Source of the DNA: Bdellovibrionales bacterium
GTDB lineage: Bacteria; Bdellovibrionota; Bdellovibrionia; Bdellovibrionales; UBA1609
DNA length: 64,000 nucleotides
Reading direction: 5' to 3'
Assembly: GCA_965261545.1 (NCBI GenBank)
Contig: CBDHDF010000010.1
Location: 518,741 to 582,740 of the forward strand
Under the pieces are notes generated by a model that was not told the DNA's origin, ran no database searches, and worked only from the letters and a program-made list of their open reading frames with translations. Of the stretch, positions 2,597 to 61,933 are shown piece by piece. The translations under genes were made by a program, and so were the position numbers. Every line of letters begins with the position of its first letter. The stretch's first letter is position 1.

Positions 2597-2682
2597 CCCG
2601 ATGGGCGGGTTAAACCAGGCCATTTGTGGGCGGGCAAACCAGGCCATTTAGGGCGATCTGACAAGATGGGCTCACCCTACCT

Positions 2683-3453: not shown

Positions 3454-3532
3454 TGTGATTGCTCCTTTCCTCTAGAAGAGGGGTTGGGGGGGTGGATTAA
3501 GTAAGGTTGGTGCTAGGCTGAGGGTGTAAGGG

Positions 3533-7992: not shown

Positions 7993-8114
7993 CCTTCCCT
8001 CCCAGGTTGTTTTCTAGAAGGTATTTTACAATACGCCTTGTCAGATATTAAATTTTAAATGGCCTGGTTTGCCCGCCCACAAATGGCCTGGTTTGCCCTC
8101 CCCTCCGGGCTATC

Positions 8115-8560
8115 ATGTCACGATCTATCGTGCAGGAGGGAAGCAAGAAATTGTCGCTCGCCATCAAAGAAAACCTGATGGGGAGCATAGTCTTCTTCTT
8201 GAACATATCCTTCCCTCTTTAGTTCGTAAGCCGCAAGCCATGGTAAGATGGGCTCACCGATCCATTCTTTTTCCAACAAATGTGTTTGAAAATTTTTATC
8301 AATACCTCAAGCAACAAGATTCAAGCCGTGCCGAGCATGAATATTTAAGAGTTATCAACTTGATTCAGCATGTGAGTTGGCAGGACTTATCTACAGCCAT
8401 GGAGCTTCAATTAGAAAGTCGTGAGATTTTCGACTTTAAATCCATAAAAGATTTGCTCTTAGGCAATCCCACCAAAATTAATTTGAATGACCAACAAAAA
8501 CCACTTCAACCTAGATTGTCTCAATATGACAGTCTTGTTCCAAACATAGGAGGTTCTTAA
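8115..8560 (+). pseudogene. istA: IstA (element A), 3' third, continuing from 2596.
   Basis: Joins in frame to codon ..GPY at 2593-2595 once IS21-B is removed. It overlaps the istB-A start (ATGA at 8557-8560), as is typical for IS21. Confidence 0.8.
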
Positions 8561-8964
8561 TGAATCACGAAGAACTTATAGGTTCTCTTAAAAAACTCCG
8601 ACTTCCAGCGATGGCGGATGAATATGTTGCAACGGCTAGAGTTGCCGAAAAAACAAAAAAGACGTATGAACAGTATTTAGGTATACTCGTTCAAAATGAG
8701 CTTGCTGACAAGCATTCCCAGAGAGTGAAAAGATTGCTTAAGGGGGCCAAGCTTCCTCAACTTAAATCACTCCAAACTTATAACTTCCAGAAAAGAACGG
8801 GAGTGACAGCTCAGCAAATTAATTGGATGGCAGAGGGAGAGTGGGTCAGAAAAGCCTGTAATGTTGTGTTTTACGGAAGCTTTGGAATGGGGAAAAGTCA
8901 TTTGGCCATGTCCCTAGTTCGTTCACTCTGTGAACAAGGCTATCGATGTTTATGGGTCACCACT
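8560..8964 (+). pseudogene. istB: IstB (element A), truncated after about 135 codons.
   Basis: An N-terminal IstB-like helix region and Walker A (FYGSFGMGKSHLA) are present. Walker B and the rest are missing. Similarity ends at ..RCLWVTT, followed by tgttatacg... Confidence 0.75.
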
Positions 8965-9279
8965 TGTTATACGATACTTTATTCTGACTAGAATTCGCCT
9001 TTATTTTTTATTTTTCTTTGACCATCCCTAGAGAATTATTACATTCCCTTGACTAAGTCTTGTCATAACCTCCCCATGAGTTTAATACTCTGCATCAGGA
9101 GGTGTTATGATTTTAGCTACTTTTGTATCAACGGATGACCTTGTAAAAGAAGGTAAGAATTACAATTGGAAGAGGCCATGTAAGTGCCAAAATCCCGGAT
9201 GTAAAAGTGAGAAGCTCTGGGGCCATGGCTATGTGAAGAGATACTTTTTTGCATGCTCTGAAGCGGTCTACCTCAAGCG

Positions 9280-10696
9280 CAATGCCGTTTCCTTAAGCCA
9301 CCACACCCCTCTGCCTCTGCGTTAAGCTATTTCTTTTAAAAGAACTCCCAGCCCTTTTGATAGACCTTTCATAGCTTCTTTTGAAGTGCCTCCTCTTCTC
9401 CATTGAAATCTTCATCAGCAACTTTATCTGCTTCCTAAATTTCTGATAGAGCCCCGCAACAAAAAGAGGGATGCTATCCATTATGAAATCAAGAATCAGT
9501 TTAAAGTTAGGTTTTTTGTAGTCATTTTTTACCAACTGATTCACACTGTCTTCATCCTCATTTATGCTCATTTGAATCTTTGTATAATTGAAGAGCCAAA
9601 AATAAGAATACAGCTCTTGCAATATTCCATTAAGGCTTGTTGAGTGCCACTGCTCCATTTTCATTGTCGATGTAAAATCACGAAATGTCGTTTCTATTTC
9701 CCAACGACGAGAGTAAAGAGCAACCATATCCTTCTTGTCCAAGGAGCCATGCGGAAGATTAGTGGCCAAAACAGAGAACTCCCCAGTCTTTGGGTTTTTA
9801 TACTTATAGAGATGAATGACCACCCCCTCAATAACCATTCGTGAATACCAACCTGGGCCATTAAATAAATTTACAATGGGGATAAAAGTAGAGCCTCGCT
9901 TACAACGCGCAATAAAGAAGTTACTGGCTTGAGCATGGGCCTTAATAATCTCTGTAGATAAATAAAGCCTATCGTAGAGAGTTATGCTATTACTCTCAAA
10001 ACTACCTATCATTTGAATAGCATTGGCGATTTCGTTGAGAGCGGGAGAAAAGCAAAGATTCTTTGTCACACCCGATAAAACGTCATAAGCATGAGATAGA
10101 TACATACGTAAGAAATGAGTTTCCATCTCATTTGGGCAAGGGTACCCACAATAACCCTCCTTTAAAAGATCTTTAGAGCGAGGAAGTGCTAATTGGTCGC
10201 CATCTATGGCATAGATATAAAAACCATGAAACGTTTTTCTCAATGGTTCGTAGTCTGTAATCAGAGATTCAAAGATATCTTTGAAAAATAGGTAAGAAAT
10301 ACTTTGACGTATCTTGCTGAGACTGCTTTTGACTGGCATGAGAAGCAGGTCACCAAAATGAGTCCATACCGTCTTAAGAGCGATTTGGTAGCCTTCGTAA
10401 TTTGTTCCGGAAATAAGATAGATAATGGTAAAAAAGAAAATTTGAGGATTAAATTTTCGATTCCTTTTTTGTTTTTCTGGATCGACAAGGTGCTCTGGCT
10501 TGAAGGAAGAATCAAGTTTTGGTAGAATAAAATGGTCATCTGTGACGCGAACTCGTCATTTGGGGGCTTTCGAGATCAATATTGGATTGCATGTGACTTA
10601 CTCCTTGGTTGAGGGTTGGGTGTAAAATAAAACAAGTCTTATTCTTGTCGATTTATCTAATAATTTCAAGAGATTTTTCTTAAGGAAACGGCATTG
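9280..10696 (-). mobile_element. IS4-family insertion sequence (about 1.4 kb).
   Basis: The 17-18-bp terminal IR (c)aatgccgtttccttaag lies at 9280-9297, with its reverse complement at 10679-10696. The 10-11-bp target duplication acctcaagcg(c) lies at 9270-9280 and 10697-10707. Confidence 0.85.
9293..10339 (-). CDS. IS4-family DDE transposase.
   Basis: IYAIDGDQLALP, ITLYDRLY, YSRRWEIETTFRDFTSTMK (YREK signature). The frame stays open a further 72 codons upstream (to 10555) but has no ATG/GTG/TTG there. Confidence 0.8.
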   Translation of the reverse strand: MPVKSSLSKIRQSISYLFFKDIFESLITDYEPLRKTFHGFYIYAIDGDQLALPRSKDLLKEGYCGYPCPNEMETHFLRMYLSHAYDVLSGVTKNLCFSPALNEIANAIQMIGSFESNSITLYDRLYLSTEIIKAHAQASNFFIARCKRGSTFIPIVNLFNGPGWYSRMVIEGVVIHLYKYKNPKTGEFSVLATNLPHGSLDKKDMVALYSRRWEIETTFRDFTSTMKMEQWHSTSLNGILQELYSYFWLFNYTKIQMSINEDEDSVNQLVKNDYKKPNFKLILDFIMDSIPLFVAGLYQKFRKQIKLLMKISMEKRRHFKRSYERSIKRAGSSFKRNSLTQRQRGVVA

Positions 10697-11118
10697 ACCT
10701 CAAGCGCTGGCGGTGTCCTCACTGCCACAGTGTTATAACGACAAGACCCAAGTCGTTCTGGCGTCGTTTTCAAGAGACAAAGTCTCGTATTTTCGAAGCA
10801 TTACGACATCGTCTGAACCCCAAGATTCCCAAGGCATGGCCCCTTTGGACAACGAGGCAAAGAGCGGGGCACTGGCTGAAAAAACTTCTTAATCACGCTA
10901 AGGCTTATAATCTGATGAAAGAAAAAGATCCACTTAGCACAGTGGCCTTTTATCAAGAGAAAAACCTGGACATTTTTGGTTAACGAAGTTTGCCAGTGCT
11001 CCCATTTATTTTCAACCTACCGTTTCTTGTCATTAACAAAGAGTCAGGAAGTTGTGTATCTCTTATTTCAAGAAAGATTTCCAATAACGGAAATTAAATC
11101 AAAGAAAGAGAGGTCAAA

Positions 11119-12417
11119 ATGGCTGATAAGGACAAGAAAATGGAGGTTGCCACCTTTAGATTCGGAGTGATTTCTGAATTTGTTACAGGGTTGCGCCTTG
11201 AATATGGAGAAAAAGAGAGATTGCTTACGGAAAAATCTTCCAAGAGCTATCGTGTTCCCTACTCATCATCGACTCGTGTGAGTCGTTCCACCATAAAAAA
11301 ATGGATTGCAGACTACAAGGGATCGGGCAATAGATTAGAGGGGCTTATGCCATCGGATCGCAAGGATCAAGGTCAATTTAGAAGTCTTGATGAATCTCTC
11401 CAAGTGGTCATTAAAGAGATCATGAAGGCAAAGGGACATTTTACAGGCATAGCCCTTGTCAATGCTCTACGTCAGCGCGGCTCTATTGGTACCAATGAAG
11501 AGATCAATATGAGTGTGCTTTATAGATTTTTAAAGCATCACAAATTGCAACAAAAAGAGTCCACAGATCGTAGGTCCTTTGAAGCTTCGTCTCCCAATGA
11601 AATGTGGCAGTCAGATGTTCTTCATGGCCCCATTGTGGTTGGCAAAAAGAGAAAGAAAGTAAAATCCTACCTCATTGCCATATTGGATGACAATTCTCGC
11701 ATCATTCCCCACGGGGAGTTTTATGAGTCCGAAAGGCTTGAGAATATGAAGGATTGTCTTAAGAAAGCTGTTGAGAAGAGGGGGCTTCCTCAAAAGCTTT
11801 ATATCGATAATGGGGCTTGTTTTAAGGCTATAAACTTGGAACAGGTCACAGCTTCCTTGGGTATTCAGATTATTCACACTCCTCCTTATACTCCTCAGGG
11901 TCGGGGGAAAGTGGAGCGTTGGTTTCGATATGTACGGGAAAACTTCTTTCCTCGCTGCGATGAAAAAACCTTGAGCCTTGAAGAACTGAATGAGGTATTT
12001 TCTGACTGGGTGGAGAGTTATCACCACAAAGTTCATGGAACCACTGGCGAAACTCCATTGGCGAAATTCCGTAAAAATATGAAGTGTGTTCGTCCCGCTC
12101 CCCCCAATCTATTGGACTATTTTCGATTTATTCAATTTCGACGAGTTAAAAAGGATCGAACTTTTCATTTGAATGGAACCATATATGAAGCTCCCGTAGA
12201 CCTGATCGATAGAAGAGTGGAACTCAAGTTCCACAGAGAGACTCCCGAAGATGTTGAAATTTTCTTTGATGGAAGAAGCTTTGGTCAGGCCAATTTATTG
12301 GATCGGCATGTGAATTTTTACTTGGGTCGCAATGGAAAGGTGACTTCTGCCACGAAAGAGACAAAACCAAAATCAGGAGAATTATTTTCAGGAGATAAAA
12401 CAGGAGGTAAGAAATGA
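11119..12417 (+). CDS. Mu/Tn552/TniA-like DDE (rve integrase-core) transposase.
   Basis: 432 aa. N-terminal HTH region, then a DDE triad context: MWQSDVLHG, KLYIDNGACF, PYTPQGRGKVERWF. The stop overlaps the start of a downstream AAA+ gene (ATGA at 12414). Confidence 0.75.
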   Translation: MADKDKKMEVATFRFGVISEFVTGLRLEYGEKERLLTEKSSKSYRVPYSSSTRVSRSTIKKWIADYKGSGNRLEGLMPSDRKDQGQFRSLDESLQVVIKEIMKAKGHFTGIALVNALRQRGSIGTNEEINMSVLYRFLKHHKLQQKESTDRRSFEASSPNEMWQSDVLHGPIVVGKKRKKVKSYLIAILDDNSRIIPHGEFYESERLENMKDCLKKAVEKRGLPQKLYIDNGACFKAINLEQVTASLGIQIIHTPPYTPQGRGKVERWFRYVRENFFPRCDEKTLSLEELNEVFSDWVESYHHKVHGTTGETPLAKFRKNMKCVRPAPPNLLDYFRFIQFRRVKKDRTFHLNGTIYEAPVDLIDRRVELKFHRETPEDVEIFFDGRSFGQANLLDRHVNFYLGRNGKVTSATKETKPKSGELFSGDKTGGKK

Positions 12418-12803
12418 AATACATTGAATATTTTGGAATGAAGTTCTCTCCTTTTAATGACAATCTTAAATCCAAAGACCTTATGTCTTTACCTGGAACA
12501 ATGGCAGTGAAAGAGAGATTGGATTATGTTCTTTCCATTGGTGGAATTATGGTCGTCACCGGCGATGTTGGCACCGGAAAATCCACCGCCATGAGATGGA
12601 GTTTAGATCAATTCCACAAATCTGAAATTAACAGCTGTTATGTGACGGCGAACAGTGGCTCAACCAGTGAGCTATATAGACAATTGTGTTGGAGTATAAA
12701 TTTAAATTTAAGAGGAAACCATAGGTCCTTCCTTCTTAAGGAATTCAAAGAAGCCATCTCAGAAATATTAGAACAACAAAGAAATAAAATTGTGGTTATC
12801 ATT
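12414..12803 (+). pseudogene. TniB/ExeA-like AAA+ transposition ATPase, truncated by an IS insertion.
   Basis: Walker A (VVTGDVGTGKST) followed by KIVVII, which is where Walker B should start. The frame is broken at the IS terminal repeat beginning at 12804. Confidence 0.65.
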
Positions 12804-12830
12804 CATAGGTGTTCGTGGTTTTTTATTCTT

Positions 12831-14075
12831 TCATAGCAAGACCTTTTTAGCCATATTCATTGATGTTTTTCGCCGTCGGTAGTTTGTGTCATAAATTTCA
12901 TGGGAGAATATCTTGATCTTCTCTATCAAAATATTTAAATACTTTTGAGATGAGCTTAGGAGATATTTGATAAAATCAGAGGCTAATAAGACGGTAACCT
13001 TAGCAACTCTTTGAAACGATGTGGAGTCATTTTGTTCCTTATTGAGTTTAGTTCTTCCTATCCTCAAAACAACACTTGATGTGAGGTGAGCCGCTAATGA
13101 AGCAAGAAGAAGACTCTCTATGATATTTTGATCGTTTGAGGTGATCTGATTTGCATTCAAAGAATTCTTACAAGATTTGAAAATAAGTTCACATTGCCAA
13201 CGTAAACGATAAATTGGATATATGGACTCCGCTGCCACATCTAAATTCGTGCAATACCAATGATAGCGTTTTTCGGAGGAATTCCAGAAGCCTACAATTC
13301 TCAAACTTACCCATTTACCATTGGACAAGACACTGCCTATAAATTCAACAACATCGTTTTTTTTCTTGAGTTTAATATCAGAGAACTCTTTTCCAACATA
13401 GTAATCTGGCAAACCTTCAACAACAGCATCAATAAGAATAGAGGCATTTGACTTTACTCTAGACAAGAAAAATCCTTTAGCTTCATGAATAGATGACAAT
13501 AAGCCATAGTCCCAATATCCCAAATCAAAGATGACTAATTTTCCAACGAGTTCCTTTATATCAGGAAAGCACTTCCTATCGTTAGTGGAAGACGGAGTTA
13601 ATTCGAACCAAGTCATTATACCACTGAATAAACTGAAACAAGCGTGCCATTTAATTCCTGCGTTTGTTCTTGTCCCTGGAAAATTCTCAGATGCTCCATC
13701 CCAAAGGCTTATTGTGCTTGAGTCAACAAGAAGAACGTCTGAGACTCCCAGTTGTAATAATATGGCTTTGCTCCCATGAAAAGCTCCATGAGATAGCTTT
13801 ATCATGAGCATTTCAACCAGTTTACTCAGAAGCTCTTTTAATCTTTTTCTAGAGAGTCTTTCCCAGAAGCTGTGTCTTTCAATTCTTAATCCTAAATGAC
13901 TTATCATAAACCTCCTAATTCCCTCTATTGAATATGTCTTAGAGTCTCCCTGGAATGACAAGACAAGAGCCACAATAAACTCAAGAGGTGGAATGGTTGC
14001 CCGAGAGTCCTTTTCAGGAATAACTTTCTTGAAACATTTTTTGATCGTTTTAAGTGTTTGAGCTTCCGTGCTCAT
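12831..14075 (-). CDS. IS4-superfamily DDE transposase (DDE_Tnp_1 type).
   Basis: 414 aa. VLLVDSSTISLW, LVIFDLGYWDY, YRLRWQCELIFKSCKNSL (YREK signature). Confidence 0.8.
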   Translation of the reverse strand: MSTEAQTLKTIKKCFKKVIPEKDSRATIPPLEFIVALVLSFQGDSKTYSIEGIRRFMISHLGLRIERHSFWERLSRKRLKELLSKLVEMLMIKLSHGAFHGSKAILLQLGVSDVLLVDSSTISLWDGASENFPGTRTNAGIKWHACFSLFSGIMTWFELTPSSTNDRKCFPDIKELVGKLVIFDLGYWDYGLLSSIHEAKGFFLSRVKSNASILIDAVVEGLPDYYVGKEFSDIKLKKKNDVVEFIGSVLSNGKWVSLRIVGFWNSSEKRYHWYCTNLDVAAESIYPIYRLRWQCELIFKSCKNSLNANQITSNDQNIIESLLLASLAAHLTSSVVLRIGRTKLNKEQNDSTSFQRVAKVTVLLASDFIKYLLSSSQKYLNILIEKIKIFSHEIYDTNYRRRKTSMNMAKKVLL

Positions 14076-15318: not shown

Positions 15319-16128
15319 ATGGCATTGAAGTACGACAGTCGTGCCGAGAATATCCGACAAGCTTTAAAGAATCGAGGATGGACGATCAATGATGGTGGAT
15401 TTTCTTTCTTCGTCTCTGTTTGGAGAACTTCTACCAACAATGAATCCATCACCCTCCCTTTACCACTAGGGTATAATTATAATTTCCAGGTGAATTGGGG
15501 CGATGGTTCTTCCAGCGAAGTCACAGCCCACGATGACAGCGACATCACCCATACCTACGCAGAGGCTGGAGATTACACCATGACTATTTCTGAAACCCTT
15601 GAAGCTTGGAATTTCAAAAACTATGCCATTGAACATAGGTCTAAACTCATTTTTGTGAAAGATCTCGGCGACGTGGATTGGAAAGATTTGCAAGAAGCCT
15701 TTTATTACTGTCGCAATTTGGAAAGCCTAAGGGGAGGAAATGTCTCTGGTGTTATAAGTATGAGATCTATGTTTCACACCTCGTTTCAGGGTTCAGTCCT
15801 TCATCCCGATGTGAGCCGTTGGGATACTTCCAAGGTCACAGATATGAAAAGTATGTTTGAACAAGCTCTGTCAGCTCAACCCAATATGTCCCAATGGGAT
15901 TTTCGCAATGTTAAGATCATGAGACGCATGCTTAGAAACATCATTCTGCCCACGGAGGTGTATAGCCGCATGATCAAGCAAATTCACAGCACTTCACAAA
16001 AAAATAACATTTCGTTTCATGGGGGAAATTCAAAATACAATAACAGTGCCATTGATGCACGAGCGGCTCTCATAGCTCGAAAATGGACCATTGTTGATGG
16101 TGGTCTCGATGGAGGAGTCGGGGAATAG
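15319..16128 (+). CDS. DUF285/BspA-like repeat protein lacking a signal peptide, probably a 5'-truncated or chimeric paralog.
   Basis: The first 27 aa (..AENIRQALKNRGWTINDGG) resemble the C-terminal module of this family. They are followed by the family N-terminal module (VWRTSTNNESITLPLPLGYNYNFQVNWGDGS) and one or two WDTSKVTDM repeats. Confidence 0.7.
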   Translation: MALKYDSRAENIRQALKNRGWTINDGGFSFFVSVWRTSTNNESITLPLPLGYNYNFQVNWGDGSSSEVTAHDDSDITHTYAEAGDYTMTISETLEAWNFKNYAIEHRSKLIFVKDLGDVDWKDLQEAFYYCRNLESLRGGNVSGVISMRSMFHTSFQGSVLHPDVSRWDTSKVTDMKSMFEQALSAQPNMSQWDFRNVKIMRRMLRNIILPTEVYSRMIKQIHSTSQKNNISFHGGNSKYNNSAIDARAALIARKWTIVDGGLDGGVGE

Positions 16129-16399: not shown

Positions 16400-17857
16400 A
16401 TGATATATTTCATGAAAGAAAGAATTGTCAGAAAGTATCTTGCTTTATTATTTTATATTTTTGTTTTCACTCTTGTGGGCTGTAAAGATACTACTAAAAA
16501 ACCGATACAGATGATAAGCATCAATGGTCAAGAATCGAATCAAAAAAATAAGGATATAGAAGAAGATATAATAGAAGAAAGTGTAGTGGCAGAAAGTAGA
16601 GCATCAAAAGGTATAGAAGACGAAAATGAATTGAAATTTGACAGTTTTGAGTCTCTCACATTAGAAAACGTAGATTCTTACCCTATAAGAGGGAGATGCC
16701 TTTCAAGTTTAGGTTCAGTGAGCATTGCCACAGGGCAGTCTGCTGTGGAGCATGTTTTAGATTGTGAAGAAAATAATACTTTTTCAGGAATTTTTGATAT
16801 GAGAGAAATAACTTCAGATCATTCTTTAATAACAGCAACTCAAGGCTCTAAAACTATCACAAATTCATCTATAGAAAATGAGGTTCAATACTTTGTAAGT
16901 GAATGGAAATTTGATGGAGAAAACTATCTCTTCGTTTTTCCTATTAAAGAGAATTTAAAATATAATTTTATTATTGATTGGGGGGACGGTAGTTCTCAAA
17001 ATGAAGTGACATCTTTCGATGACCCGGATAAGAGTCATACCTATACTAAACCTGGAAATTATATCATTACCGTTATGGGGCTTTGTGAGGGTTTTGAGAA
17101 TGCCCGAGGTAATAGGGTCGGACCTGATGCTGATCACCTTGTAAAAGTTTTGAATCTAGGCCATGTGGGTTGGAAGGATTTATCCTACGCCTTTTCACAA
17201 AACCAGTATCTCACAGATTTTTTTGGAGGAAACACCTCTCAGGTGACTAATATGTCTTATATGTTTTATGGAGCCTACGAAGTCACTCCCAATGTGAATG
17301 GATGGGATACGTCTCAAGTGACAGATATGTCTTATATGTTTAACAGTGCTTTACTCGCCAACTTAGATGTGAGTGATTGGGATACGTCTCAAGTGACAAA
17401 TATGTCTTATATGTTTTCCAATGCCGATCGAGCCACTCCAGATGTGAGTGATTGGAATACGTCCCAAGTGACAGATATGTCTTCTATGTTTAGCGTTGCG
17501 ACTATAATCAATCCCGACGTGAGTGACTGGGATACGTCTCAAGTAACAAATATGTCTCGTATGTTTTATCATTCTCGATCTGCAAATCCTTATACAGCCA
17601 CATGGGATTTAAGTCGTATCCAAAGTATCGAAAGTATTTTTGATCGATCAACAAACTTATCTCTTGAAAATTATTCAATATTTCTTAGGGTGGCTGCTCA
17701 GATGATACCTGAAGATGCTTTTGGTCCTAAAAGCATAGGATCTAAAGTTCCCATTAAAGTGCAGTACAACGTTCAGGCAAAGTCTTCTAGGTCGATCTTG
17801 TTGAGTCGAGGTTGGACGATCAATGATGCTGGTTTGATTTCCACAGCTGGTGAGTGA
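16400..17857 (+). CDS. DUF285/BspA-like repeat surface lipoprotein.
   Basis: Lipobox FTLVGC. IIDWGDGSSQNEV module. Five or more tandem 26-aa repeats (DVSDWDTSQVTNMSYMF). C-terminal SRGWTINDAG module. Confidence 0.75.
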   Translation: MIYFMKERIVRKYLALLFYIFVFTLVGCKDTTKKPIQMISINGQESNQKNKDIEEDIIEESVVAESRASKGIEDENELKFDSFESLTLENVDSYPIRGRCLSSLGSVSIATGQSAVEHVLDCEENNTFSGIFDMREITSDHSLITATQGSKTITNSSIENEVQYFVSEWKFDGENYLFVFPIKENLKYNFIIDWGDGSSQNEVTSFDDPDKSHTYTKPGNYIITVMGLCEGFENARGNRVGPDADHLVKVLNLGHVGWKDLSYAFSQNQYLTDFFGGNTSQVTNMSYMFYGAYEVTPNVNGWDTSQVTDMSYMFNSALLANLDVSDWDTSQVTNMSYMFSNADRATPDVSDWNTSQVTDMSSMFSVATIINPDVSDWDTSQVTNMSRMFYHSRSANPYTATWDLSRIQSIESIFDRSTNLSLENYSIFLRVAAQMIPEDAFGPKSIGSKVPIKVQYNVQAKSSRSILLSRGWTINDAGLISTAGE

Positions 17858-31882: not shown

Positions 31883-33196
31883 TCACGGATTGAAGGAGTC
31901 CAGAGAGAAGTTCTTTAAGAAGGAATCTTCCAGTAAACGCCCTATCACAGCCCAAACCTGGGTGAGTTCCTCTGGAGTTATACAATAGGGTGGTAATACA
32001 TAGAGGATGTTTCCAAGGGGTCTTAGAAAAACTCCCTCTTCCATGGCTCTTTGGGTAATGATTTGAGAGAAAGGGGACTCATACCCCCTCTGGTCTGAGG
32101 CAAGTTCGATGGCGGCCACAGTGCCACACACTCTTGTATCCACAACACAGGGGTGACTTCTATAAGGAGCTATATTTTTCATATGAATATGGTGAATTTG
32201 TTCCCATTTTGATTTTAAGACGTGATCTTTCATAAGTTGAGTGCTCGCTGTCGCTGCGGCACAAGCTATTGGATTGGCCGTAAAACTGTGACCATGAAAA
32301 AGCATTTTACTTTTTTCTTCATCGAGAAAACATTGATAAACTTCAGGTGTGGCTATGGTCAAAGACAGAGGGAGAAAACCGCCCGTAAGACCCTTTGACA
32401 GACAAATTATATCTGGCTTTTCGTCAATATGATCCATGGCAAAATTTCGCCCTGTTCTTCCAAAGCCTGTCATGACTTCATCAAAAATAACATAAGCTCC
32501 ATGTTTACGTGCCACTTGCACGACTTCGCTCAAAGCCTGAGGGGGCCACATAATCATTCCACCGGCACCCTGGATAAGTGGCTCCACAATAAGAGCCGCC
32601 ACACGACTGCCATGCTCTTCCATTTGATTCTTAAGGTCATCCACATAGGAAGTCCATGGGGCTGTACTCTTTGTGCCTTGTTCAACATGAATGACATCAA
32701 AGAGCATTTCCTTGTAGGGCTGGGTGAAAAGACTCGGTCCGCCCACACTCATAGCGCCAGCTGTATCGCCATGATAAGCCTGCTTAAAGGCGACAAAACG
32801 ATTTCTCGTAGCTTCCCCCTTTTGTTGACAAGCCTGGAGAGCCATTTTTAAAGAAACTTCCACGGCTGTGGAGCCGTTATCTGAGAAAAAGAAATGTTTG
32901 AGGGAAGAGGGAAGGAGTTCTTGCAAAGATTCTATGAGTTGCTCAGCTGGTTCATGAGAAAAATTTCCAAACAAAACCTGATCCACTTGTTCAAGTTGTC
33001 TTTGAACTGCTTGAACCACTTGGGGGTGGCAGTGGCCATGGGTAATTACCCACCAAGACGAAATGGCGTCAATAAGTTCTTGCCCATTTTCCAAAAACAA
33101 CTTGGCTCCACGGGAACCCACAACCCTAGGGGGAGGGGCCGCTAACTTCATTTGCGTAAAAGGACGCCAGAGAGAAGAGTTCATATCATGACTCAT
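31883..33196 (-). CDS. bioA: Adenosylmethionine-8-amino-7-oxononanoate aminotransferase.
   Basis: Class III aminotransferase. SWWVITHGH, VIFDEVMTGFGRTG, PLP lysine in CLSKGLTGG. Lies in the bio cluster. Confidence 0.9.
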   Translation of the reverse strand: MSHDMNSSLWRPFTQMKLAAPPPRVVGSRGAKLFLENGQELIDAISSWWVITHGHCHPQVVQAVQRQLEQVDQVLFGNFSHEPAEQLIESLQELLPSSLKHFFFSDNGSTAVEVSLKMALQACQQKGEATRNRFVAFKQAYHGDTAGAMSVGGPSLFTQPYKEMLFDVIHVEQGTKSTAPWTSYVDDLKNQMEEHGSRVAALIVEPLIQGAGGMIMWPPQALSEVVQVARKHGAYVIFDEVMTGFGRTGRNFAMDHIDEKPDIICLSKGLTGGFLPLSLTIATPEVYQCFLDEEKSKMLFHGHSFTANPIACAAATASTQLMKDHVLKSKWEQIHHIHMKNIAPYRSHPCVVDTRVCGTVAAIELASDQRGYESPFSQIITQRAMEEGVFLRPLGNILYVLPPYCITPEELTQVWAVIGRLLEDSFLKNFSLDSFNP

Positions 33197-33935
33197 AGGG
33201 GCCTCGCTTACTTATAAGGGCGTGTTTATTCAAGAGAGGACTCGCAAATTTTTGATCTTGAGGGGGTGGCGTAGCCTCTTGGTGAAAAACGGCCTTTTGG
33301 GGTATGACCTGTGGAGGCATGGCCTTTTGGGGGACTGCCTCCATCCAAGAATCGAGCAAACATTTAAAAGCAGCTTCTTCTTTGTTTGCAAATATTTTTT
33401 GTCTCTGAGGGGCTTTTTCTGGATCCAATTCATAAATGAGAAAGCGCATTGTTTCTAGGTGAGAATTTTCTTCGTTGAGAATCCCTTGCAATTTGAAAGT
33501 TCGCTCCTTGTATAATTTAAACGGCCTGATGATCTGAAGATAGAGTGTATAAACAAAAATGGCTCTCTCTTCGATAAGCCATGTTACATAGAGATAATTG
33601 AGCCGAGTGTTCGTCACTTGTAACTCATGGGTCACCATGTGATCGAGAGATTGGAAATAATCCTTAGAAGACTTTCCCGCAAGCAGTGCATCTTCACTGT
33701 AATTGGGGCAAGCTCCTGGCAGAGTTTTTTCTGAAAGCTTCTTAAAAAAATAAGCATGGCGAGTTTCTTCAGCAATATGCTCCATCATCATAAGGTCTAA
33801 GCTATGGGCCTCTTGACTCTTGATAATTTTGCGTGCTCCGATGTATTCTAGAAGTGAAAGGGTATTGAGCCATTTTGCATGGTGCAAAGGTTCGTGGGCA
33901 AGGGTATTTAAAAAATTGATAATTGTTTGGTGCAT
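33186..33935 (-). CDS. Ferritin-like/diiron-carboxylate-type protein of unknown function, embedded in the biotin operon.
   Basis: Two E...ExxH units: LLEYIG..(27 aa)..EETRH and LIEERA..(about 32 aa)..EENSH. 249 aa. The 11-nt overlap with the bioA start suggests translational coupling. Confidence 0.55.
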   Translation of the reverse strand: MHQTIINFLNTLAHEPLHHAKWLNTLSLLEYIGARKIIKSQEAHSLDLMMMEHIAEETRHAYFFKKLSEKTLPGACPNYSEDALLAGKSSKDYFQSLDHMVTHELQVTNTRLNYLYVTWLIEERAIFVYTLYLQIIRPFKLYKERTFKLQGILNEENSHLETMRFLIYELDPEKAPQRQKIFANKEEAAFKCLLDSWMEAVPQKAMPPQVIPQKAVFHQEATPPPQDQKFASPLLNKHALISKRGPYES

Positions 33936-34019
33936 ATGTTTTTCACCTCTGCATATGTTTTTTTACTGCTGTTTCTCGGTAAATCCTAATTCTCGACAAG
34001 TCCTTATTTTCGACAAGTC

Positions 34020-34625
34020 CTAGGCCCAAAAAAAACCGTATCCAAGCTTGAGATCTAAATATTCAAAATTCTCTAGATTTTCAAGCCAAGGAAACTCAAA
34101 AACTGGTATCTTTGATAAACGCTCTATGGTTTGGCGGTTGGACTCATTGGGGGGGCCCACCATCACCACAGAGTGAATATTCAGGTTTCGTTTTTTAAGA
34201 GCCTCAATACTGAGCAGGCTATGATTTAAGGTGCCAAGAGAGCTTTTTGCAACAAGAATGACGGGTAAGCCTAGGTGCGACATTAAATCCATCATATTGT
34301 GCTCCCATGTTATGGGCACGTAAACACCTCCTGCACCCTCCACAATAAGGGGCTGAGGTCCCAAAGGCATCTTGCAATGGGTGGTGGTGATATCCAAGTC
34401 AATACCTTCTAGCTCAGAAGCTCTATGGGGGGAGAGGGGGTGCTTTAATTTATAAGCACTCGGGTGAACTTTGGTGCTTCCCACAAGGTCCCTCACAGTT
34501 TCTTCATCGGATGGCTCTCCGCACTGAATGGGCTTCCAATATTTACCACCACCACACTTTGTGAGGTAGGCTGAAAAAATTGTTTTGCCAATATCTGTGT
34601 CTGTTCCCGTAACAAAATAGCTCAT
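34020..34625 (-). CDS. bioD: Dethiobiotin synthetase.
   Basis: YFVTGTDTDIGKT P-loop, EGAGG motif, 201 aa, bio cluster. Confidence 0.85.
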   Translation of the reverse strand: MSYFVTGTDTDIGKTIFSAYLTKCGGGKYWKPIQCGEPSDEETVRDLVGSTKVHPSAYKLKHPLSPHRASELEGIDLDITTTHCKMPLGPQPLIVEGAGGVYVPITWEHNMMDLMSHLGLPVILVAKSSLGTLNHSLLSIEALKKRNLNIHSVVMVGPPNESNRQTIERLSKIPVFEFPWLENLENFEYLDLKLGYGFFWA

Positions 34626-34646: not shown

Positions 34647-35852
34647 CTATGTCTCCTTAATGAAGTGAAACACCTCTTCGAGTTGCTGGCGAGTCTGTGT
34701 ACTTTTTAAGCAGATTCTTAAGCGTTCATTGCCCTTGGCCACTGTGGGGTAGCGAATGGGCTTAATATTAAAATTTTTTCTTTGAAGACCCTCTGCCACC
34801 CTTGTTACTTGTCGGCTGCCAGGAACCAAAACAGAAACGATATGACTCCTTTGGGTTCCTCTCCCATCACTGTGGGCATAACTGTGGTTTTTACCTAGGT
34901 GGGTCCAAAGCCAATCCATATGCTCCCATAGCTTCTGGCGAAGTTGGGGTTCAGATTCCCACACCGTCCAAGCTGCCATCCACTGCTCCATCACCAGAGG
35001 AGAGGGGGCTGTTGTGTATATAAAACTCCTGGAAGTATTGATAAGCCACTTTTTAACTTCCTCCGAACAAAGGACAAAGGCCCCCTGACTTCCAAAAGCC
35101 TTCCCCATAGTGTGAACGGAGATGATATTTCTTTTGCTCTCTAAATCATCCACAAAACCCAAGCCCTTTTGTCCATAAATCCCCGTGGCATGGGCCTCGT
35201 CAATGAACAACCAAGCTTCATGTTTTTGAGCGAGGGCGTAAAGATCTTGGAGGGGAGCAAAGTCACCCTCCATGCTGAAGAGACTTTCACTGATGATAAC
35301 CTTAAAGGGGGGGGGCTCCAGGGGAGCCTTTTCTATGAAGGGAGCTTTTTCCATAGGTGACTGGGGAGAAGGATGACCTTCAATTTGAGACATTTTTTCT
35401 TCTAGGTCCCTAAGGTCGCAATGTTTATAAATGGACTTTGAGGCCCCCGAAAGTCGAATGCCATCGATGAGGCTTGCATGGTTGAGTTCGTCAGAAAATA
35501 TATGGACATTTGAAAATATATGGGTATTTGAAAATAAAGAAGTTATGACACCAACATTGGCTAGGTAACCACTTCCATACACCAAGGCGGATGGACGCTG
35601 AAATTTGTGGGCTAGAAATTTTTCCACCTTTTCATGCTGCAGATGGTGACCACAGAGGAGTCGTGATCCCCCTGAACCCATGGGTACCCCCCTTTGCAAA
35701 GCTTCTATAAGAGTTTCGCGAATATGCGGATGATGAGATAACCCCAAAATATCGTTGGACGAAAAATCTACACCCGTGGATAGAGATAGTTGGCGGCAAA
35801 GACCCTTTTCTTCTAGTTGAGTGAGCTTTCTACGGAGGGTGTTTTCAAGCAT
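34647..35852 (-). CDS. bioF: 8-amino-7-oxononanoate synthase.
   Basis: SGYLANVG, FIDEAHATGIYG, PLP lysine in HTMGKAFGSQG. Confidence 0.9.
   Translation of the reverse strand: MLENTLRRKLTQLEEKGLCRQLSLSTGVDFSSNDILGLSHHPHIRETLIEALQRGVPMGSGGSRLLCGHHLQHEKVEKFLAHKFQRPSALVYGSGYLANVGVITSLFSNTHIFSNVHIFSDELNHASLIDGIRLSGASKSIYKHCDLRDLEEKMSQIEGHPSPQSPMEKAPFIEKAPLEPPPFKVIISESLFSMEGDFAPLQDLYALAQKHEAWLFIDEAHATGIYGQKGLGFVDDLESKRNIISVHTMGKAFGSQGAFVLCSEEVKKWLINTSRSFIYTTAPSPLVMEQWMAAWTVWESEPQLRQKLWEHMDWLWTHLGKNHSYAHSDGRGTQRSHIVSVLVPGSRQVTRVAEGLQRKNFNIKPIRYPTVAKGNERLRICLKSTQTRQQLEEVFHFIKET
35494..35539. repeat. In-frame 18-bp x2.5 repeat inside bioF.
   Basis: gaaaatatatggacattt / gaaaatatatgggtattt / gaaaataaag. 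Encodes SNTHIF/SNVHIF. A second 18-bp x2 repeat lies at 35324-35359. Confidence 0.85.
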
Positions 35853-36880
35853 TCCATGGGCTCCATGGGTTTTAGGCTTAAGTCTTCAAAAAGCTTTTGA
35901 TCTTTTGAAACTTCAGGATTGGGGGAAGTCAAAAGTCTTTCCCCTAGGAAAATAGAATTGGCCCCTGCATAAAAACAGAGAAGCTGCTCAGCAGATGTCA
36001 TGTTAATTCGCCCCGCACTGAGGCGAATCATGGAATTTGGCATATGCACCCTTGCCGTTGCAATGACCCGCACCACATCCAAAGTTTCCACAGGTTTTTG
36101 TTTGGCCAAAGGTGTGCCCTCGATGGCCACAAGAGTATTGATGGTGACACTTTCTGGTTGAGGGTTCATTTTTACCAGTTGGTGTAAGAAGTGAATGCGA
36201 TCTTTATGGGCTTCTCCCAGCCCAAGAATCCCACCCGTGCAAACAGTGATCCCTGCTTCACGCACATGGCTTAATGTTTTCAGACGATCTTGAAACTGAC
36301 GGGTCGAAATGACCTTCTCATAAAAATCTTCAGAGCAATCTATATTGTGGTTGTAGGCGTAAAGCCCGGCATCTTTAAGTTGTTGGGCTTGATGCTTTTT
36401 CAGCATACCTAAGGTGCAGCAAACTTCCATATCCATGGAACTTATACGTCGTACCATCTCTAAAACACGATTGAATTGAGGGCCGTCACGGACCTCTCTC
36501 CAAGCGGCTCCCATGCAAAACCGTGTCGCCCCTTCAGCTTTGGCCCTTTGGGCTTCAAAGATAACTTCATTCACTTCCATGAGGTCTTCTTTTTGAACCC
36601 CCGTTTTGTAATGGGCCGACTGGGGGCAATAGGCGCAATCTTCAGGACAGCCCCCTGTTTTAATAGAAAGCAAACGACTTGTTTGAATGGTCATGGGGTC
36701 GAAGCAAGACCTATGAATTCTATGAGCCTTTTCGATAAGCTCCACCATGGGAAGTCCATAGGTTTTTTGGATAGATTGAATAGATTGTATAGAAAAAGCA
36801 GACTGTATGTCGCCACTGGAAGAATCAGATTGAAGTTGAGTTTCAAGCTCCATAGAAGCGATAGGTTCCTCCAATATCAC
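35813..36880 (-). CDS. bioB: Biotin synthase (radical SAM).
   Basis: GGCPEDCAYCPQS (CxxxCxxC), YNHNID, and ..SIFLGERLLT at the C-terminal part. The N-terminus carries an SIQSIQSIQ repeat. Confidence 0.9.
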   Translation of the reverse strand: MILEEPIASMELETQLQSDSSSGDIQSAFSIQSIQSIQKTYGLPMVELIEKAHRIHRSCFDPMTIQTSRLLSIKTGGCPEDCAYCPQSAHYKTGVQKEDLMEVNEVIFEAQRAKAEGATRFCMGAAWREVRDGPQFNRVLEMVRRISSMDMEVCCTLGMLKKHQAQQLKDAGLYAYNHNIDCSEDFYEKVISTRQFQDRLKTLSHVREAGITVCTGGILGLGEAHKDRIHFLHQLVKMNPQPESVTINTLVAIEGTPLAKQKPVETLDVVRVIATARVHMPNSMIRLSAGRINMTSAEQLLCFYAGANSIFLGERLLTSPNPEVSKDQKLFEDLSLKPMEPMECLKTPSVESSLN

Positions 36881-37163
36881 TGAAAAAGCAAGGCTTGTTG
36901 CCTACTGTTAAGTTTGATGACAGGCGTCGGTTTTATATTCATTATTCTCTCAAGGAAGTTTTTAGAAGGTCTTTTATTTCAACAACTTACCAATCGCCTT
37001 CCCAGGCACTCTATTTGCTCCATAAAACATCAAGTTGTCGAAGCAAAGGTTAGGGGAAACCTTTGCAACTTGAATTTGTTGCAAAACGAACAATGAGCTG
37101 AATAGACTCTCATGTGGGAAGTCCCCGTTTCCATGATGGGTTACAAATCCTTAGGAGGCAAAA

Positions 37164-40073: not shown

Positions 40074-41219
40074 CTACCTCTTCCAACTCTTGTAAAGAAT
40101 TTGTCCAAACTCCTCCAAACTCTTTTGTCCCACCACTCCTCCCCTCAATTCAGGAACCATCACAAAATCAGACCCCTCCCCAAGAGAAGTCTGAATTTGC
40201 TGGAGGGAAGAAATCTTTTCTCTGTACTCCAAAGAGAGACCACGACATAGGTCTGTCAACCGAGGATCCGAAAACTCCATCTCTTTTCCTTCAAATTCTT
40301 CAAACCCCTCCCCCTCCATCCACGATGGATAGCAGCGATTCACAATCACCCCGTAAAGCCCTTGCCCTCTTTTCTTAAGTTCATGGGCCAAATAGCTCAC
40401 CTCCTTATTTTTACTCTTATTTCCACTGGCGACAAGAAGAACTCTCGTGCTTTCACGACCAAGAATCTCTTCAAATCGACAACTGCTATGGACAATGGCC
40501 TGTTGGAGGTCCTGAGCACTGATAAAAAACTCTCTGAGTTCATCCACAAAATCAGGCCCTGTCACAAGCTCCATGGCTTTAAGAACTTGAAGAGTTCCCC
40601 GGTGAACAACCTTTCTAAAAAGACCCTGCTTCTCCGCCGGCTGGAGAAACCACTTAGAAACAGAGTCATCAAAAAGGGCTCGAAGTTTTCCAGGAGCTTC
40701 TAAGAAATTCACGGCATGTTGTGTGGGAGGGGTGTCTAAAACAATGAGGTCATATTGACCCGAGCCATGGAACTCAAGGAGCCTTTCCAGAGAAGAAAAC
40801 TCCTGGGACCCACTTAAAGTTGTGGAAAGCTGTTGAAATAATTTGTTGTTAAGCAGCCTCCCCGCCAGGTGGGCATCGGGGATCGAGCGCCTCACAAAGG
40901 AGCGAAAGGATTCTTCGGGATTGAGAAGATAGGCAAAAAGAGAACCTTCCCCCATAGTCGTGCTGGTGCCCACAGAGACCACGCCCGGACCTTGGGCTGC
41001 GGAGCTTAACCCCAAACTTGTGGCAAGCCGAAGAGATGGGTCAATGGTCATGACAAGAACTCTTCGCCCTTGTTGGGCCGCCCTCATACCTAGGGAAGCT
41101 GCAAGGGTTGTCTTTCCCACTCCTCCACTGCCCATAACAAGAATAATTTTTGATTTTTCAAGAAGTTCATTCACTCTGCATCTACTTTCCATAGGTCTTA
41201 TGGGACCAACGAAGACCAC
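40074..41219 (-). CDS. ArsA/GET3-family ATPase.
   Basis: P-loop VMGSGGVGKTT, DTPPT switch motif. Confidence 0.75.
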   Translation of the reverse strand: MVFVGPIRPMESRCRVNELLEKSKIILVMGSGGVGKTTLAASLGMRAAQQGRRVLVMTIDPSLRLATSLGLSSAAQGPGVVSVGTSTTMGEGSLFAYLLNPEESFRSFVRRSIPDAHLAGRLLNNKLFQQLSTTLSGSQEFSSLERLLEFHGSGQYDLIVLDTPPTQHAVNFLEAPGKLRALFDDSVSKWFLQPAEKQGLFRKVVHRGTLQVLKAMELVTGPDFVDELREFFISAQDLQQAIVHSSCRFEEILGRESTRVLLVASGNKSKNKEVSYLAHELKKRGQGLYGVIVNRCYPSWMEGEGFEEFEGKEMEFSDPRLTDLCRGLSLEYREKISSLQQIQTSLGEGSDFVMVPELRGGVVGQKSLEEFGQILYKSWKR

Positions 41220-42106
41220 CGAATTTTACCCACAAGATCGTCCACTCTCTGTCGACCACTTTCTCCAAAACCCATGGGAGACACAATCACCTTCAAGCCT
41301 TCAGCCTCAAACTTTTTCAAGGCTTCTTTCTTGTAGGAAAGATGGGCCCGAACATCACCTAAAAATTCTCTTTGCCTCATAGAAAGAGATTCTTTCTCCA
41401 AAGAAACCACAGTACTCCCTACAGCGTTCTCCACATTGGGGTAAACACGATTGAGAACCACCGTGGGCTCAAGGTTGTGCTCTTTTCGCAACTGCTGACA
41501 GGTTTCTAGGGCTTCAACTACAGGCATCTCCTCCACTGTTGAAACCATATAAAGAGAAAAAATAGCTGGATTGAAGACCACATTTAAAATAGAACGACTC
41601 TCACGCCCCGCAGCTCCCTTGGAAACCACATAGCCTATACCCTTGGGAGCCATGAGAAGGGCCCGGCAATGCCCTGTGGAATAGGCATCAACAACCATCT
41701 CATCATAATCCATGGGAGGACCTATGCCCCGTGGCCCACTGGTGATTTTTCCCAAAATAGCAAGCTCACTTAAAGCGGGTGCGGCTCTTATTAAAGCCCC
41801 CATCACCTTGCTCTCAAAAAACAAGTCCACCAACTTGGAAACCTTTAAATAATAGGCCAAAAATTCTTTTAAACAATCCACCCCCGTCCACCGACTTACA
41901 TGCAAATTAGGCAAAACCTCACGGGCCTCAAAGCCTATCGGTGCATTTGTAGGTGCATTAAAAAGTTGGGAGAACTCACTCACCAAACCCAGTTCGACCA
42001 AGAGAACTCGCTTTCCTGCCTTGGCCAAGTCCATAGCAAGCACAGCCGCCATGGTCGATTTACCAACTCCCCCCTTACCTGTAATTAAATGAATTCTCTG
42101 GCCCAC
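41198..42106 (-). CDS. ArsA/GET3-family ATPase.
   Basis: P-loop ITGKGGVGKST, VVDAYSTGH. Overlaps the downstream paralog by 22 nt. Confidence 0.75.
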   Translation of the reverse strand: MGQRIHLITGKGGVGKSTMAAVLAMDLAKAGKRVLLVELGLVSEFSQLFNAPTNAPIGFEAREVLPNLHVSRWTGVDCLKEFLAYYLKVSKLVDLFFESKVMGALIRAAPALSELAILGKITSGPRGIGPPMDYDEMVVDAYSTGHCRALLMAPKGIGYVVSKGAAGRESRSILNVVFNPAIFSLYMVSTVEEMPVVEALETCQQLRKEHNLEPTVVLNRVYPNVENAVGSTVVSLEKESLSMRQREFLGDVRAHLSYKKEALKKFEAEGLKVIVSPMGFGESGRQRVDDLVGKIRWSSLVP

Positions 42107-59479: not shown

Positions 59480-60682
59480 GTGGATATTATTTATAGTTCT
59501 GTTTGTGGAATAGATGTTCATCAACATATGTTGATGTGTACGATTGTCAAAGTGGAAGACGGTAAGAAGAAGTTTTTCACAAAAGAGTTCAAGAATTTTC
59601 CAAAAAATTTTCCTAGAATGCGCTCTTGGATGAAGCCACATAAGGTTGAGAGAGTTCTTTTTGAGAGCACAGGGATTTATTGGAATTCTTTATACGATGA
59701 TTTGACAGAAAAAGGTTATGAAGTAGATGTTATCAATGCCTTTCATGTCAAAAATATTACTGGTAAAAAAACTGACGTGTTGGATAGCCAGTGGATTGCA
59801 GAGCTTGGTGCTTGTGGTCTTCTAAGAGCTAGCTTCATTCCTCCACGTGAGATTCGTTCTATTAGACTTTTGGCTCGTTATCGTACAAAAACGATCCGCC
59901 AAATATCTTCGGAACAAAATCGTATGTATAAGGTTCTTGAATATTCAGGCATTCGTTTAACCTATGCAATGTCTAAAGCTGACTGCGTATCTGGTATGGC
60001 CATGATTCGTGCCATAGCTAATGGAGAGAGATCAGTTTCTAAATTGATGTCTCTTGCCAGAGGGTCTTTACGTCAAAAGACCGAAGAATTTTCTTACGCC
60101 CTGTCGGGAAAGATGACGGAAGAAAATCGTTTTGTTCTTCAACGCATTCTTGATCGAATAGATTTTTTGAAAAAAGAATGCTCTCAAATTGAAGAAGAAC
60201 TTTTCATTCGTATGAAACCCTATGAAAGGCAGTGGCATCTACTCCAGACTATACCTGGAATTGACGAATTAAGTGCAGCGCTTTTGATTGCAGAAATAGG
60301 AGGCAATGTGAAGTCTTTTAAAAATAAAGGAAATTTTTGCTCCTGGATGGGGATTTGCCCATCCAATAATGAGAGCGCAGGAAAAAAAAAGTCTTCACGA
60401 ACGAGGAAAGCGAACACATATGTGAAATCGTTGGTATGTGAGATGGCCAATAGTGCTATTAAGACGAATTCACAATTCAAAGGCAAATACCAATCACTTG
60501 TTATAAGGCGTGGGCACAAGAGATCAGTGATTGCCGTTGGTCACAAAATGATGGGAGTTGTTTATTCAGTCATAAGTAATGACACCCCCTACAAAGACCC
60601 TGGAATTGACTATGAAAAGCTCATGGTGAAAAAAAATGCACCAAGGTGGATTAGAGCGTTAAAAAAGTATGATTTCATGTAA
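59480..60682 (+). CDS. IS110-family DEDD recombinase/transposase.
   Basis: N-terminal VCGIDVHQHML (DEDD_Tnp_IS110). C-terminal LQTIPGIDELSAALLIAEIGGNVKSFKNKGNFCSWMGICPSNNESAGK (Transposase_20). The SD aaggaggag precedes GTG 59480. Confidence 0.9.
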   Translation: MDIIYSSVCGIDVHQHMLMCTIVKVEDGKKKFFTKEFKNFPKNFPRMRSWMKPHKVERVLFESTGIYWNSLYDDLTEKGYEVDVINAFHVKNITGKKTDVLDSQWIAELGACGLLRASFIPPREIRSIRLLARYRTKTIRQISSEQNRMYKVLEYSGIRLTYAMSKADCVSGMAMIRAIANGERSVSKLMSLARGSLRQKTEEFSYALSGKMTEENRFVLQRILDRIDFLKKECSQIEEELFIRMKPYERQWHLLQTIPGIDELSAALLIAEIGGNVKSFKNKGNFCSWMGICPSNNESAGKKKSSRTRKANTYVKSLVCEMANSAIKTNSQFKGKYQSLVIRRGHKRSVIAVGHKMMGVVYSVISNDTPYKDPGIDYEKLMVKKNAPRWIRALKKYDFM

Positions 60683-60774
60683 TGTAGGATGATTTAAAAA
60701 CTCGGACATTTGAAAAAATTCGAAGAACGGATAGTGGATTCGTGCGTCCAAACTACCCCGGAGATTCATAGTAA

Positions 60775-61839: not shown

Positions 61840-61853
61840 GGTTTATTTCCTGA

Positions 61854-61915
61854 CCCGGAGGAGTTAGAGGTTCAAATCTTTAAAGAATGGAACCTCTCAC
61901 TAAACGAATGCCATG
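61854..61915 (+). repeat. Solo, diverged copy of the right end of the DUF4338-IS4 element.
   Basis: About 52 of 60 positions match 6026-6086 (ggaggagttagaggttcaaatc..ctctcactaaacgaatgccat). No adjacent transposase. Confidence 0.7.
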
Positions 61916-61933
61916 CCCCCCATGGGTGGTGAC

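Follow-up and report, generated by a model that had tools for sequence, protein, structure and literature searches.

A candidate BioE-type ferritin-like diiron oxygenase encoded within the biotin operon of a Bdellovibrionales bacterium

A 64-kb stretch of DNA from a Bdellovibrionales bacterium (the window) carries a run of five genes on the minus strand: bioB, bioF, bioD, an unknown gene here called X, and bioA. Gene X, the fourth of the run (33186–33935, minus strand; ATG start, TGA stop, 249 aa), is proposed, with a probability of about 0.85, to encode a ferritin-like non-heme diiron oxygenase of the BioE type, the source of biotin's pimeloyl segment for this operon. This function is proposed because the protein is homologous to characterised BioE, because metal ligands and acyl pocket are conserved, and because linkage to the biotin operon is conserved. 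The kind of enzyme is already known: its function has been published for a sister clade, and X is a new member of the kind. The initial annotation of this DNA had suggested a diiron oxygenase that makes the pimeloyl arm by an oxidative C-C cleavage like that of BioI, a suggestion now supported by the chemistry shown for the homologue BioE. Its accompanying remark, that no biotin enzyme of such a type had been characterised, has been outdated since BioE was published as a ferritin-like non-heme diiron oxygenase in December 2025 (PMC12704756, PMC12915131).

BioE has been studied from Elizabethkingia meningoseptica (EmBioE), Chryseobacterium indologenes (CiBioE) and Chlamydia psittaci (CpBioE). 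The enzyme cuts C14-C18 acyl thioesters of coenzyme A (CoA) or of the acyl carrier protein (ACP) at C7-C8, giving pimeloyl-CoA/ACP and a Cn-7 acid; it needs O2 and a reductant, the internal C7-C8 cleavage being a 10-electron oxidation, and it rescues E. coli without the BioC-BioH pimeloyl route (a ΔbioH strain). Mutation of any of six ligands, E26, E53, H56, E125, E155 and H158 in EmBioE or E41, E68, H71, E140, E170 and H173 in CpBioE, abolishes both iron binding and complementation. The acyl channel of CpBioE is formed by W33, L37, L40, I48, L105, V135, I139, L146, Y147, Y150 and L205, and basic residues (R31 and K32 in EmBioE; K46, K47 and K102 in CpBioE) contact the phosphopantetheine of CoA or ACP. 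CpBioE and EmBioE differ in carrier preference and in oligomeric state. The family is classed as ferritin-like, with the cyanobacterial aldehyde-deformylating oxygenase (cADO) named as its nearest structural neighbour. Chlamydia BioE occurs without the BioL regulator. The published survey of BioE distribution used a threshold of >40% identity to EmBioE, and neither Leptospira nor Bdellovibrio is mentioned in either paper (PMC12704756, PMC12915131).

Searches of Pfam and NCBIfam with X returned no family, the sole match being AurF at E=0.053, below the cutoff, and a single-sequence search of the PDB gave only noise (HIV capsid on the Pro-rich tail, E>=0.095). A search of a 5.8-billion-protein collection yielded 145 homologues, and 71 of these were aligned with X to give 72 sequences, all from the clade termed clade I below. 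Six residues with the pattern of diiron ligands, E30, E57, H60, E122, E156 and H159, are invariant in this alignment, as are N24, G33, K36, I37, H53, E56, K65, Y93, D98, Y114, R124, A125, Y129 and E186. The initial annotation had described two E-(about 27-32)-ExxH units; both are present, as E30-(27)-E57xxH60 and E122-(34)-E156xxH159, the second with a spacing of 34, outside the range given. The corresponding spacing is 30 in relatives, and it is longer in X because X alone has a 4-residue loop insertion (residues 137-140) between helices 5 and 6, which is missing in the closest relatives. The codons of the first unit lie at 33846-33848 (E30), 33765-33767 (E57) and 33756-33758 (H60), and those of the second at 33570-33572 (E122), 33468-33470 (E156) and 33459-33461 (H159), all on the minus strand. 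Judged from the sequences, the ferritin-type motifs in X are far beyond chance. Mutation of the ligands in orthologs had been raised as an objection to look for; none was seen, either in the 72 homologues or in the joint alignment with BioE described below.

The BioE sequences were recovered from the primers of PMC12915131 (Table S2): those for cloning and for mutagenesis were translated, and the resulting fragments were used as queries; their numbering agrees with every residue named in the BioE papers. A profile of the X family matched the fragments from primers labelled CpbioE with 102.8 bits (E=1e-27 at Z=1e6) and the E. meningoseptica BioE primer fragments with 53 bits (E=1.5e-12). A C. 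psittaci protein of 219 aa (P0129) has the N-terminus MLTSTIT and the C-terminus IEKTCRV, both matching the cloning primers exactly, and is therefore the characterised CpBioE. EmBioE was represented by 59 primer-encoded residues together with a close Pedobacter proxy (P0184). In BLASTP comparisons, X was 33% identical to C. psittaci BioE over 139 aa (E=1e-15) and 37% identical to a Pedobacter protein of the BioE clade, EmBioE-like, over 162 aa (E=2e-29). A profile comparison also links X to BioE: hhalign of clade against clade gave a probability of 100% and E=2.1e-46, the 199 aligned columns running from one end to the other. X is, by these alignments, a full-length, divergent homologue of BioE.

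The residues on which BioE activity depends were then located in X. In a joint alignment of 21 sequences from both groups, 16 positions besides the six ligands do not vary, nor do the ligands themselves, and E30, E57, H60, E122, E156 and H159 of X share alignment columns with the EmBioE and CpBioE ligands. Ten of the acyl-pocket residues whose mutation shows them to be required in CpBioE could be mapped, L205 not being confidently placed on X. Eight of the ten are identical (CpBioE to X: W33 to W22, L37 to L26, L40 to L29, I48 to I37, V135 to V117, I139 to I121, Y147 to Y129 and Y150 to Y132), and the other two are conservative replacements (L105 to F94 and L146 to V128). At the carrier-binding surface, K46 and K47 of CpBioE (R31 and K32 of EmBioE) correspond to R35 and the invariant K36 of X, and K102 corresponds to K91. 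Other positions of this interface differ, F39 of CpBioE being L28 in X, Y103 being D92, and position 106 being Q95.

The primer table of PMC12915131 is itself composite. Primers labelled 'CpbioE' in Table S2 derive from two genes, the AT-rich mutagenic set from that of C. pneumoniae (P0121) and the cloning and GC-rich primers from that of C. psittaci (P0129). One primer in the same supplement is called H106A where the figure-legend text gives D106.

Relatives of X are found beside biotin genes in many genomes. GTDB species genomes were scanned with the single pattern LE[YH]IG[AS]RKI, which retrieved 80 loci of clade I only and none from Chlamydia or Elizabethkingia; linkage was scored by tblastn of the window's BioB, BioF, BioD and BioA against these loci, counting bio genes within 10 kb. 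Bio genes lie within that distance in 42 of the 56 non-Leptospira species loci that carry an X relative. The commonest order was bioB-F-D-A-x (21 loci), followed by F-D-A-x (10 loci), the rest being fragments of these orders. The order in the window, B-F-D-x-A, recurs in two loci (L013 and L081); the latter encodes the closest relative of X (P0003, 64% identity), whose gene overlaps bioA by 14 nt. In C. psittaci bioE follows bioA (B-F-D-A-E), as in the commonest order. Among the taxa represented are Bdellovibrionales/Oligoflexia, Rhodospirillales, Micropepsaceae, Asticcacaulis, Gammaproteobacteria and one Leptospirales metagenome-assembled genome. Ferredoxin, ACP, bioC/H and similar genes were sought beside the X relatives, and no recurrent family was found except synteny within the genus Leptospira.

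The wider family falls into two groups. A phmmer search over 1.84 billion representatives (50% identity) found 532 relatives at E<=1e-3, 376 of them at E<=1e-10. A neighbour-joining tree of 234 sequences split cleanly into clade I (114 sequences) and clade II (120 sequences), with a mean between-clade identity of 32%. Clade I, with LE[YH]IG after the first ligand, holds X, Bdellovibrionota, Leptospira and Alpha- and Gammaproteobacteria, whereas clade II, with LEN[CAS]G at this place, holds Chlamydiales and Bacteroidota, the characterised enzymes included. Intermediates between the clades may exist, because the two sequence sets were gathered with different queries.

X and characterised BioE can be compared feature by feature. 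They are alike in the six ligands, the acyl pocket, the basic carrier pair, a core of ~200 aa, cADO as the nearest solved relative (for X by sequence profile), a gene lying inside a bioBFDA operon or closing it, and, as in Chlamydia, no BioL. They are unlike in gene order, which is B-F-D-E-A for X, B-F-D-A-E in Chlamydia and separate bioEFD and bioBA units in Elizabethkingia; in clade (LE[YH]IG in X against LEN[CAS]G), that of X being found in Bdellovibrionota, Leptospira and Alpha- and Gammaproteobacteria, taxa absent from the papers' lists; and in the private 4-aa insertion and 45-aa disordered tail of X.

The surroundings of X leave the operon with no other evident source of the pimeloyl thioester. 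All 55 open reading frames (ORFs) of >=90 aa in the window were scanned with Pfam, and none encoded a BioC-type methyltransferase, a BioH-type hydrolase, BioW, a P450 or a β-ketoacyl-ACP synthase III (KAS-III), which bears out across the window the initial remark that no bioC, bioH, bioW, bioI or bioZ-type gene lies in the cluster. No ORF of the window carried a transcription-factor domain, and hence no adjacent MocR/GntR repressor like BioL of the Weeksellaceae BioE-BioL module was found; BioL is not a defining partner of BioE, since Chlamydia BioE also occurs without it.

A mechanism for X can be drawn from the characterised BioE homologues. A long-chain (~C14-C18) acyl-ACP or acyl-CoA from fatty-acid synthesis would enter a hydrophobic channel with its omega end first; in X the channel would be lined by W22, L26, L29, I37, F94, V117, I121, V128, Y129 and Y132, while R35, K36 and K91 would hold the phosphopantetheine carrier. 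The diiron site (E30, E57, H60, E122, E156 and H159), with O2 and an external electron donor, would then carry out a multistep oxidation of ~10 electrons in which C7-C8 is cleaved, releasing pimeloyl-ACP or pimeloyl-CoA and a Cn-7 fatty acid. BioF would join the pimeloyl thioester to alanine, and BioA, BioD and BioB would complete biotin. We infer the activity of X, together with its preference for ACP or CoA, its chain-length preference and the identity of its reductant, by analogy with these enzymes.

The fold of X was approached by structure prediction and by profile search. An AlphaFold2 (AF2) model of X had a mean predicted local distance difference test score (pLDDT) of 88, exceeding 90 over residues 1-200, and a predicted template-modelling score (pTM) of 0.81. 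The model has helices at residues 2-13, 16-40, 48-71, 87-105, 111-136, 140-170 and 175-200 and is disordered from ~205. The conserved predicted catalytic core, a seven-helix bundle of residues 1-204 (33324-33935, minus strand), is delimited by the model, the invariant ligands and the profile matches to cADO. Searched against the PDB, the X-family profile had as its top matches ~20 cADO chains, with E from 7e-8 to 1e-3, and no heme-oxygenase-like diiron oxidase (HDO) was among the matches. The initial annotation had allowed either a ferritin-like or a heme-oxygenase-like fold; the profile search favours the first, with the cADO match at E=7e-8, and has no HDO match for the second. A twofold E...ExxH pattern is a ferritin-like signature. 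On sequence-profile grounds the fold of X is assigned as ferritin-like and not heme-oxygenase-like.

Several points count against assigning BioE function to X. Identity to the characterised BioE enzymes is only 26-33%, X stands in a clade cleanly separate from theirs, and any BioE-type activity of X or of its clade is a prediction from homology. The check for bioC/H/W/I/Z spans 64 kb of a contig of ~1.1 Mb. Across the 24 Leptospira loci, bio genes are missing from the 10 kb around the homologue. The private loop insertion (4 residues) and tail (45 residues) may affect the enzyme. The Foldseek comparison of the AF2 model with the PDB, one of the checks first proposed, gave nothing significant: the best E was 0.13, none fell below 0.1, and the top rows mixed AetD (an HDO), Dps-like proteins, TenA and MiaE, with cADO-like structures only at ranks 40-50.

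One rival view is that X is indeed a BioE-family oxygenase of the biotin pathway but acts by another chemistry or on another substrate (free fatty acids, a different cleavage site, or a hydroxylation or desaturation that feeds another enzyme), clade I then not being isofunctional with clade II. The clean clade split with its ~32% identity speaks for such a divergence, as do the changed carrier-interface positions (Y103 of CpBioE to D92, and Q95 at position 106) and the fact that CpBioE and EmBioE are themselves already unlike in carrier preference and oligomeric state. We nevertheless regard it as quite unlikely, since X keeps the ligands, 8/10 pocket residues and the basic pair that binds the carrier, its gene takes the operon position that bioE has in C. 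psittaci, and BioF requires a pimeloyl thioester for which no other source is encoded nearby.

Less likely still, and in our judgement very improbable, is that X is a rubrerythrin- or ferritin-like protein for iron handling or peroxide protection, co-transcribed so as to shield the Fe-S enzyme BioB or deliver iron to it rather than acting as a biosynthetic oxygenase. Several relatives are named 'Rubrerythrin' or 'Ferritin' in UniRef, and ferritin-like and Dps-like proteins appear among the weak profile matches. However, X has no rubredoxin domain and no Pfam Rubrerythrin match, its 45-aa tail is without Cys and predicted to be disordered, and its top PDB profile matches are the substrate-oxidising cADOs, not ferritins. 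The hydrophobic channel residues match those that BioE function requires, and the characterised homologues are enzymes with demonstrated products. An HDO of the UndA, CADD or AetD type is hardly credible: AetD chains head the Foldseek list (TM ~0.46-0.51, probability 0.99, E 0.13-0.5), but no match in that list is significant, the highest target-normalised TM values (0.61-0.63) are those of MiaE and PP_2188, both ferritin-like, the X-family profile picks out cADO, also ferritin-like, at E=7e-8 but not any HDO, the doubled E...ExxH motif is of the ferritin-like kind, and the BioE papers class the family as ferritin-like.

Clade I may hold more than one function. Its linkage to bio genes is not uniform, since the 24 relatives from Leptospira are all found away from such genes. 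In 11 Leptospira loci (L005-L010, L012, L015, L017, L023 and L032), from pathogenic and other non-saprophytic species, the homologue is divergent from a gene for a UbiA-family prenyltransferase, with UbiX just beyond (~8900-10600 in each locus). The six of these that come from the pathogenic species closest to L. interrogans (L005-L010) also have a UbiD-like gene ~4 kb downstream. This UbiA/UbiX/UbiD synteny is limited to the one genus, and a search of the literature on Leptospira biotin genes found nothing useful. Because the genes are bio-unlinked and have UbiA/UbiX/UbiD neighbours, the enzymes of the Leptospira branch could carry out some other oxidation, for instance in the metabolism of prenylquinones; or else the Leptospira homologue could be where a major zoonotic pathogen gets its pimelate, a role so far unrecognised. 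We put forward tentatively, and at a low probability, the broader idea that X represents a second BioE lineage (clade I, LE[YH]IG[AS]RKI), outside the coverage of the BioE papers, within which function may not be uniform.

Two other enzymes bear comparison with BioE. The cADOs (also 'aldehyde decarbonylase'; PDB 5uwz, 2oc5 and 4rc5) share with BioE a ferritin-like diiron bundle, a long aliphatic chain held in a hydrophobic channel and an external reductant, and their match to the X family is confined to profile positions 64-180, roughly half of the protein. They differ in reaction and in genomic partners: cADO takes C1 of a fatty aldehyde off as formate and is associated with acyl-ACP reductase, whereas BioE cuts the internal C7-C8 bond of a thioester and is associated with bioFDAB. 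BioI of Bacillus subtilis (CYP107H1) is a functional analogue that resembles BioE in O2-dependent oxidative C7-C8 cleavage of long-chain acyl-ACP to pimeloyl-ACP and in being encoded by a bio-operon gene (PMC12915131). It is unlike BioE in being a heme-thiolate P450 with an unrelated fold and cofactor, and the window encodes no P450.

BioE brings the known routes to biotin's pimeloyl precursor to four and is a proposed antibacterial target. A sister clade within bioBFDA operons of phyla on which the BioE papers are silent, among them a small-genome Bdellovibrionota-like organism, extends the pathway's known reach, and bio-unlinked homologues occur in all sampled Leptospira. An annotation can be offered for several hundred proteins now called 'hypothetical' or 'rubrerythrin' (532 representatives, E<=1e-3). 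Natural variation of this extent (~32% identity with ligands and pocket kept) is useful for studying a 10-electron internal C-C cleavage at a diiron site. The residual interest lies in clade I itself, in its bio-unlinked Leptospira members, and in the private insertion and tail of X.

The tail, residues 205-249 (33189-33323, minus strand), is Pro/Gln-rich and predicted to be disordered (pLDDT 46-73). It is absent from the closest relatives, which measure 207-220 aa, and the DNA that encodes it showed no tandem repeat. The tail-coding sequence extends into the start of bioA and holds the bioA ribosome-binding site, a GAGG placed 5 nt upstream of the bioA ATG. The insertion and the Pro/Gln tail might give X a place for a partner to dock or a means of regulation. 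Eight nt upstream of the X ATG itself lies a Shine-Dalgarno-like GAGGTG (33944-33949, minus strand), read from the sequence, with a probable role in ribosome binding.

The other four genes of the operon were assigned with family models, and three of them, bioB, bioD and bioA, exceed the NCBIfam equivalog cutoffs. The first gene, bioB (biotin synthase; 35813-36880, minus strand), matches TIGR00433 at 3.9e-111 (371 bits, cutoff 225) and has Radical_SAM and BATS domains. The bioF gene (8-amino-7-oxononanoate synthase, which uses the pimeloyl thioester as substrate; 34647-35852, minus strand) matches TIGR00858 at 2.4e-102 and Aminotran_1_2 at 2.9e-45; its 342 bits fall under the TIGR00858 equivalog cutoff of 426, yet this is its top-scoring model, and the same gene occupies the bioF position in at least 33 related operons. 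The bioD gene (dethiobiotin synthase; 34020-34625, minus strand) matches TIGR00347 at 1.8e-33 (116 bits, cutoff 83) and AAA_26 at 3.5e-48. The last gene, bioA (adenosylmethionine-8-amino-7-oxononanoate transaminase; 31883-33196, minus strand), matches TIGR00508 at 3.7e-159 (530 bits, cutoff 405). The coordinates and family models agree with the initial description of five tightly packed genes on one strand: bioB and bioF overlap by 40 nt, bioF and bioD are 21 nt apart, and bioD and X are 84 nt apart. The 11-nt overlap of X with the start of bioA (ATGAGTCATGA), also described at the outset, was confirmed from the sequence.

When read from its GTG start, bioB has an N-terminal extension of ~40 aa ahead of the TIGR00433 match, with a SIQSIQSIQ repeat inside it (36760-36880, minus strand); an internal ATG (M10) could serve as the start instead. 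Within the 283 nt upstream of bioB lies an imperfect palindrome (37028-37081, no strand assigned) with the core GCAAAGGTT-N6-AACCTTTGC and 24-nt arms that are 71% complementary. The palindrome is a possible, putative operator; a conserved role is without support, because the core is absent from all 83 related loci.

Outside the operon, the window has dense insertion-sequence genes and fragments at 66-14075 and 59480-63964, which is unusual for a contig of ~1.1 Mb. They comprise an IS110 fragment (66-425) and an intact IS110 (59480-60682); an IstB_IS21 gene (2683-3453, minus strand) with a shortened copy at 8560-8991; rve integrases at 6070-7992 (minus strand) and 11119-12417; and DDE_Tnp_1 transposases at 9293-10339, 12831-14075 and 62741-63964 (all three on the minus strand). 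A 781-aa ORF at 3639-5984 (plus strand) is an odd fusion, its N-terminal domain being DruA (Druantia defence, PF14236, 1.4e-35) and its C-terminal one the transposase domain DDE_Tnp_1 (7.6e-21). Three repeat proteins of the DUF285 type (BspA-like, 'Mycoplasma'; lowest E 1.9e-56) are encoded at 15319-16128, 16400-17857 and 60775-61839 (minus strand), and one of them has a weak PKD-domain match as well. At 40074-42106 (minus strand), two tandem genes for ArsA-like P-loop ATPases overlap by 22 nt and are followed downstream by genes for a TPR protein and a CysZ/EI24-family membrane protein.

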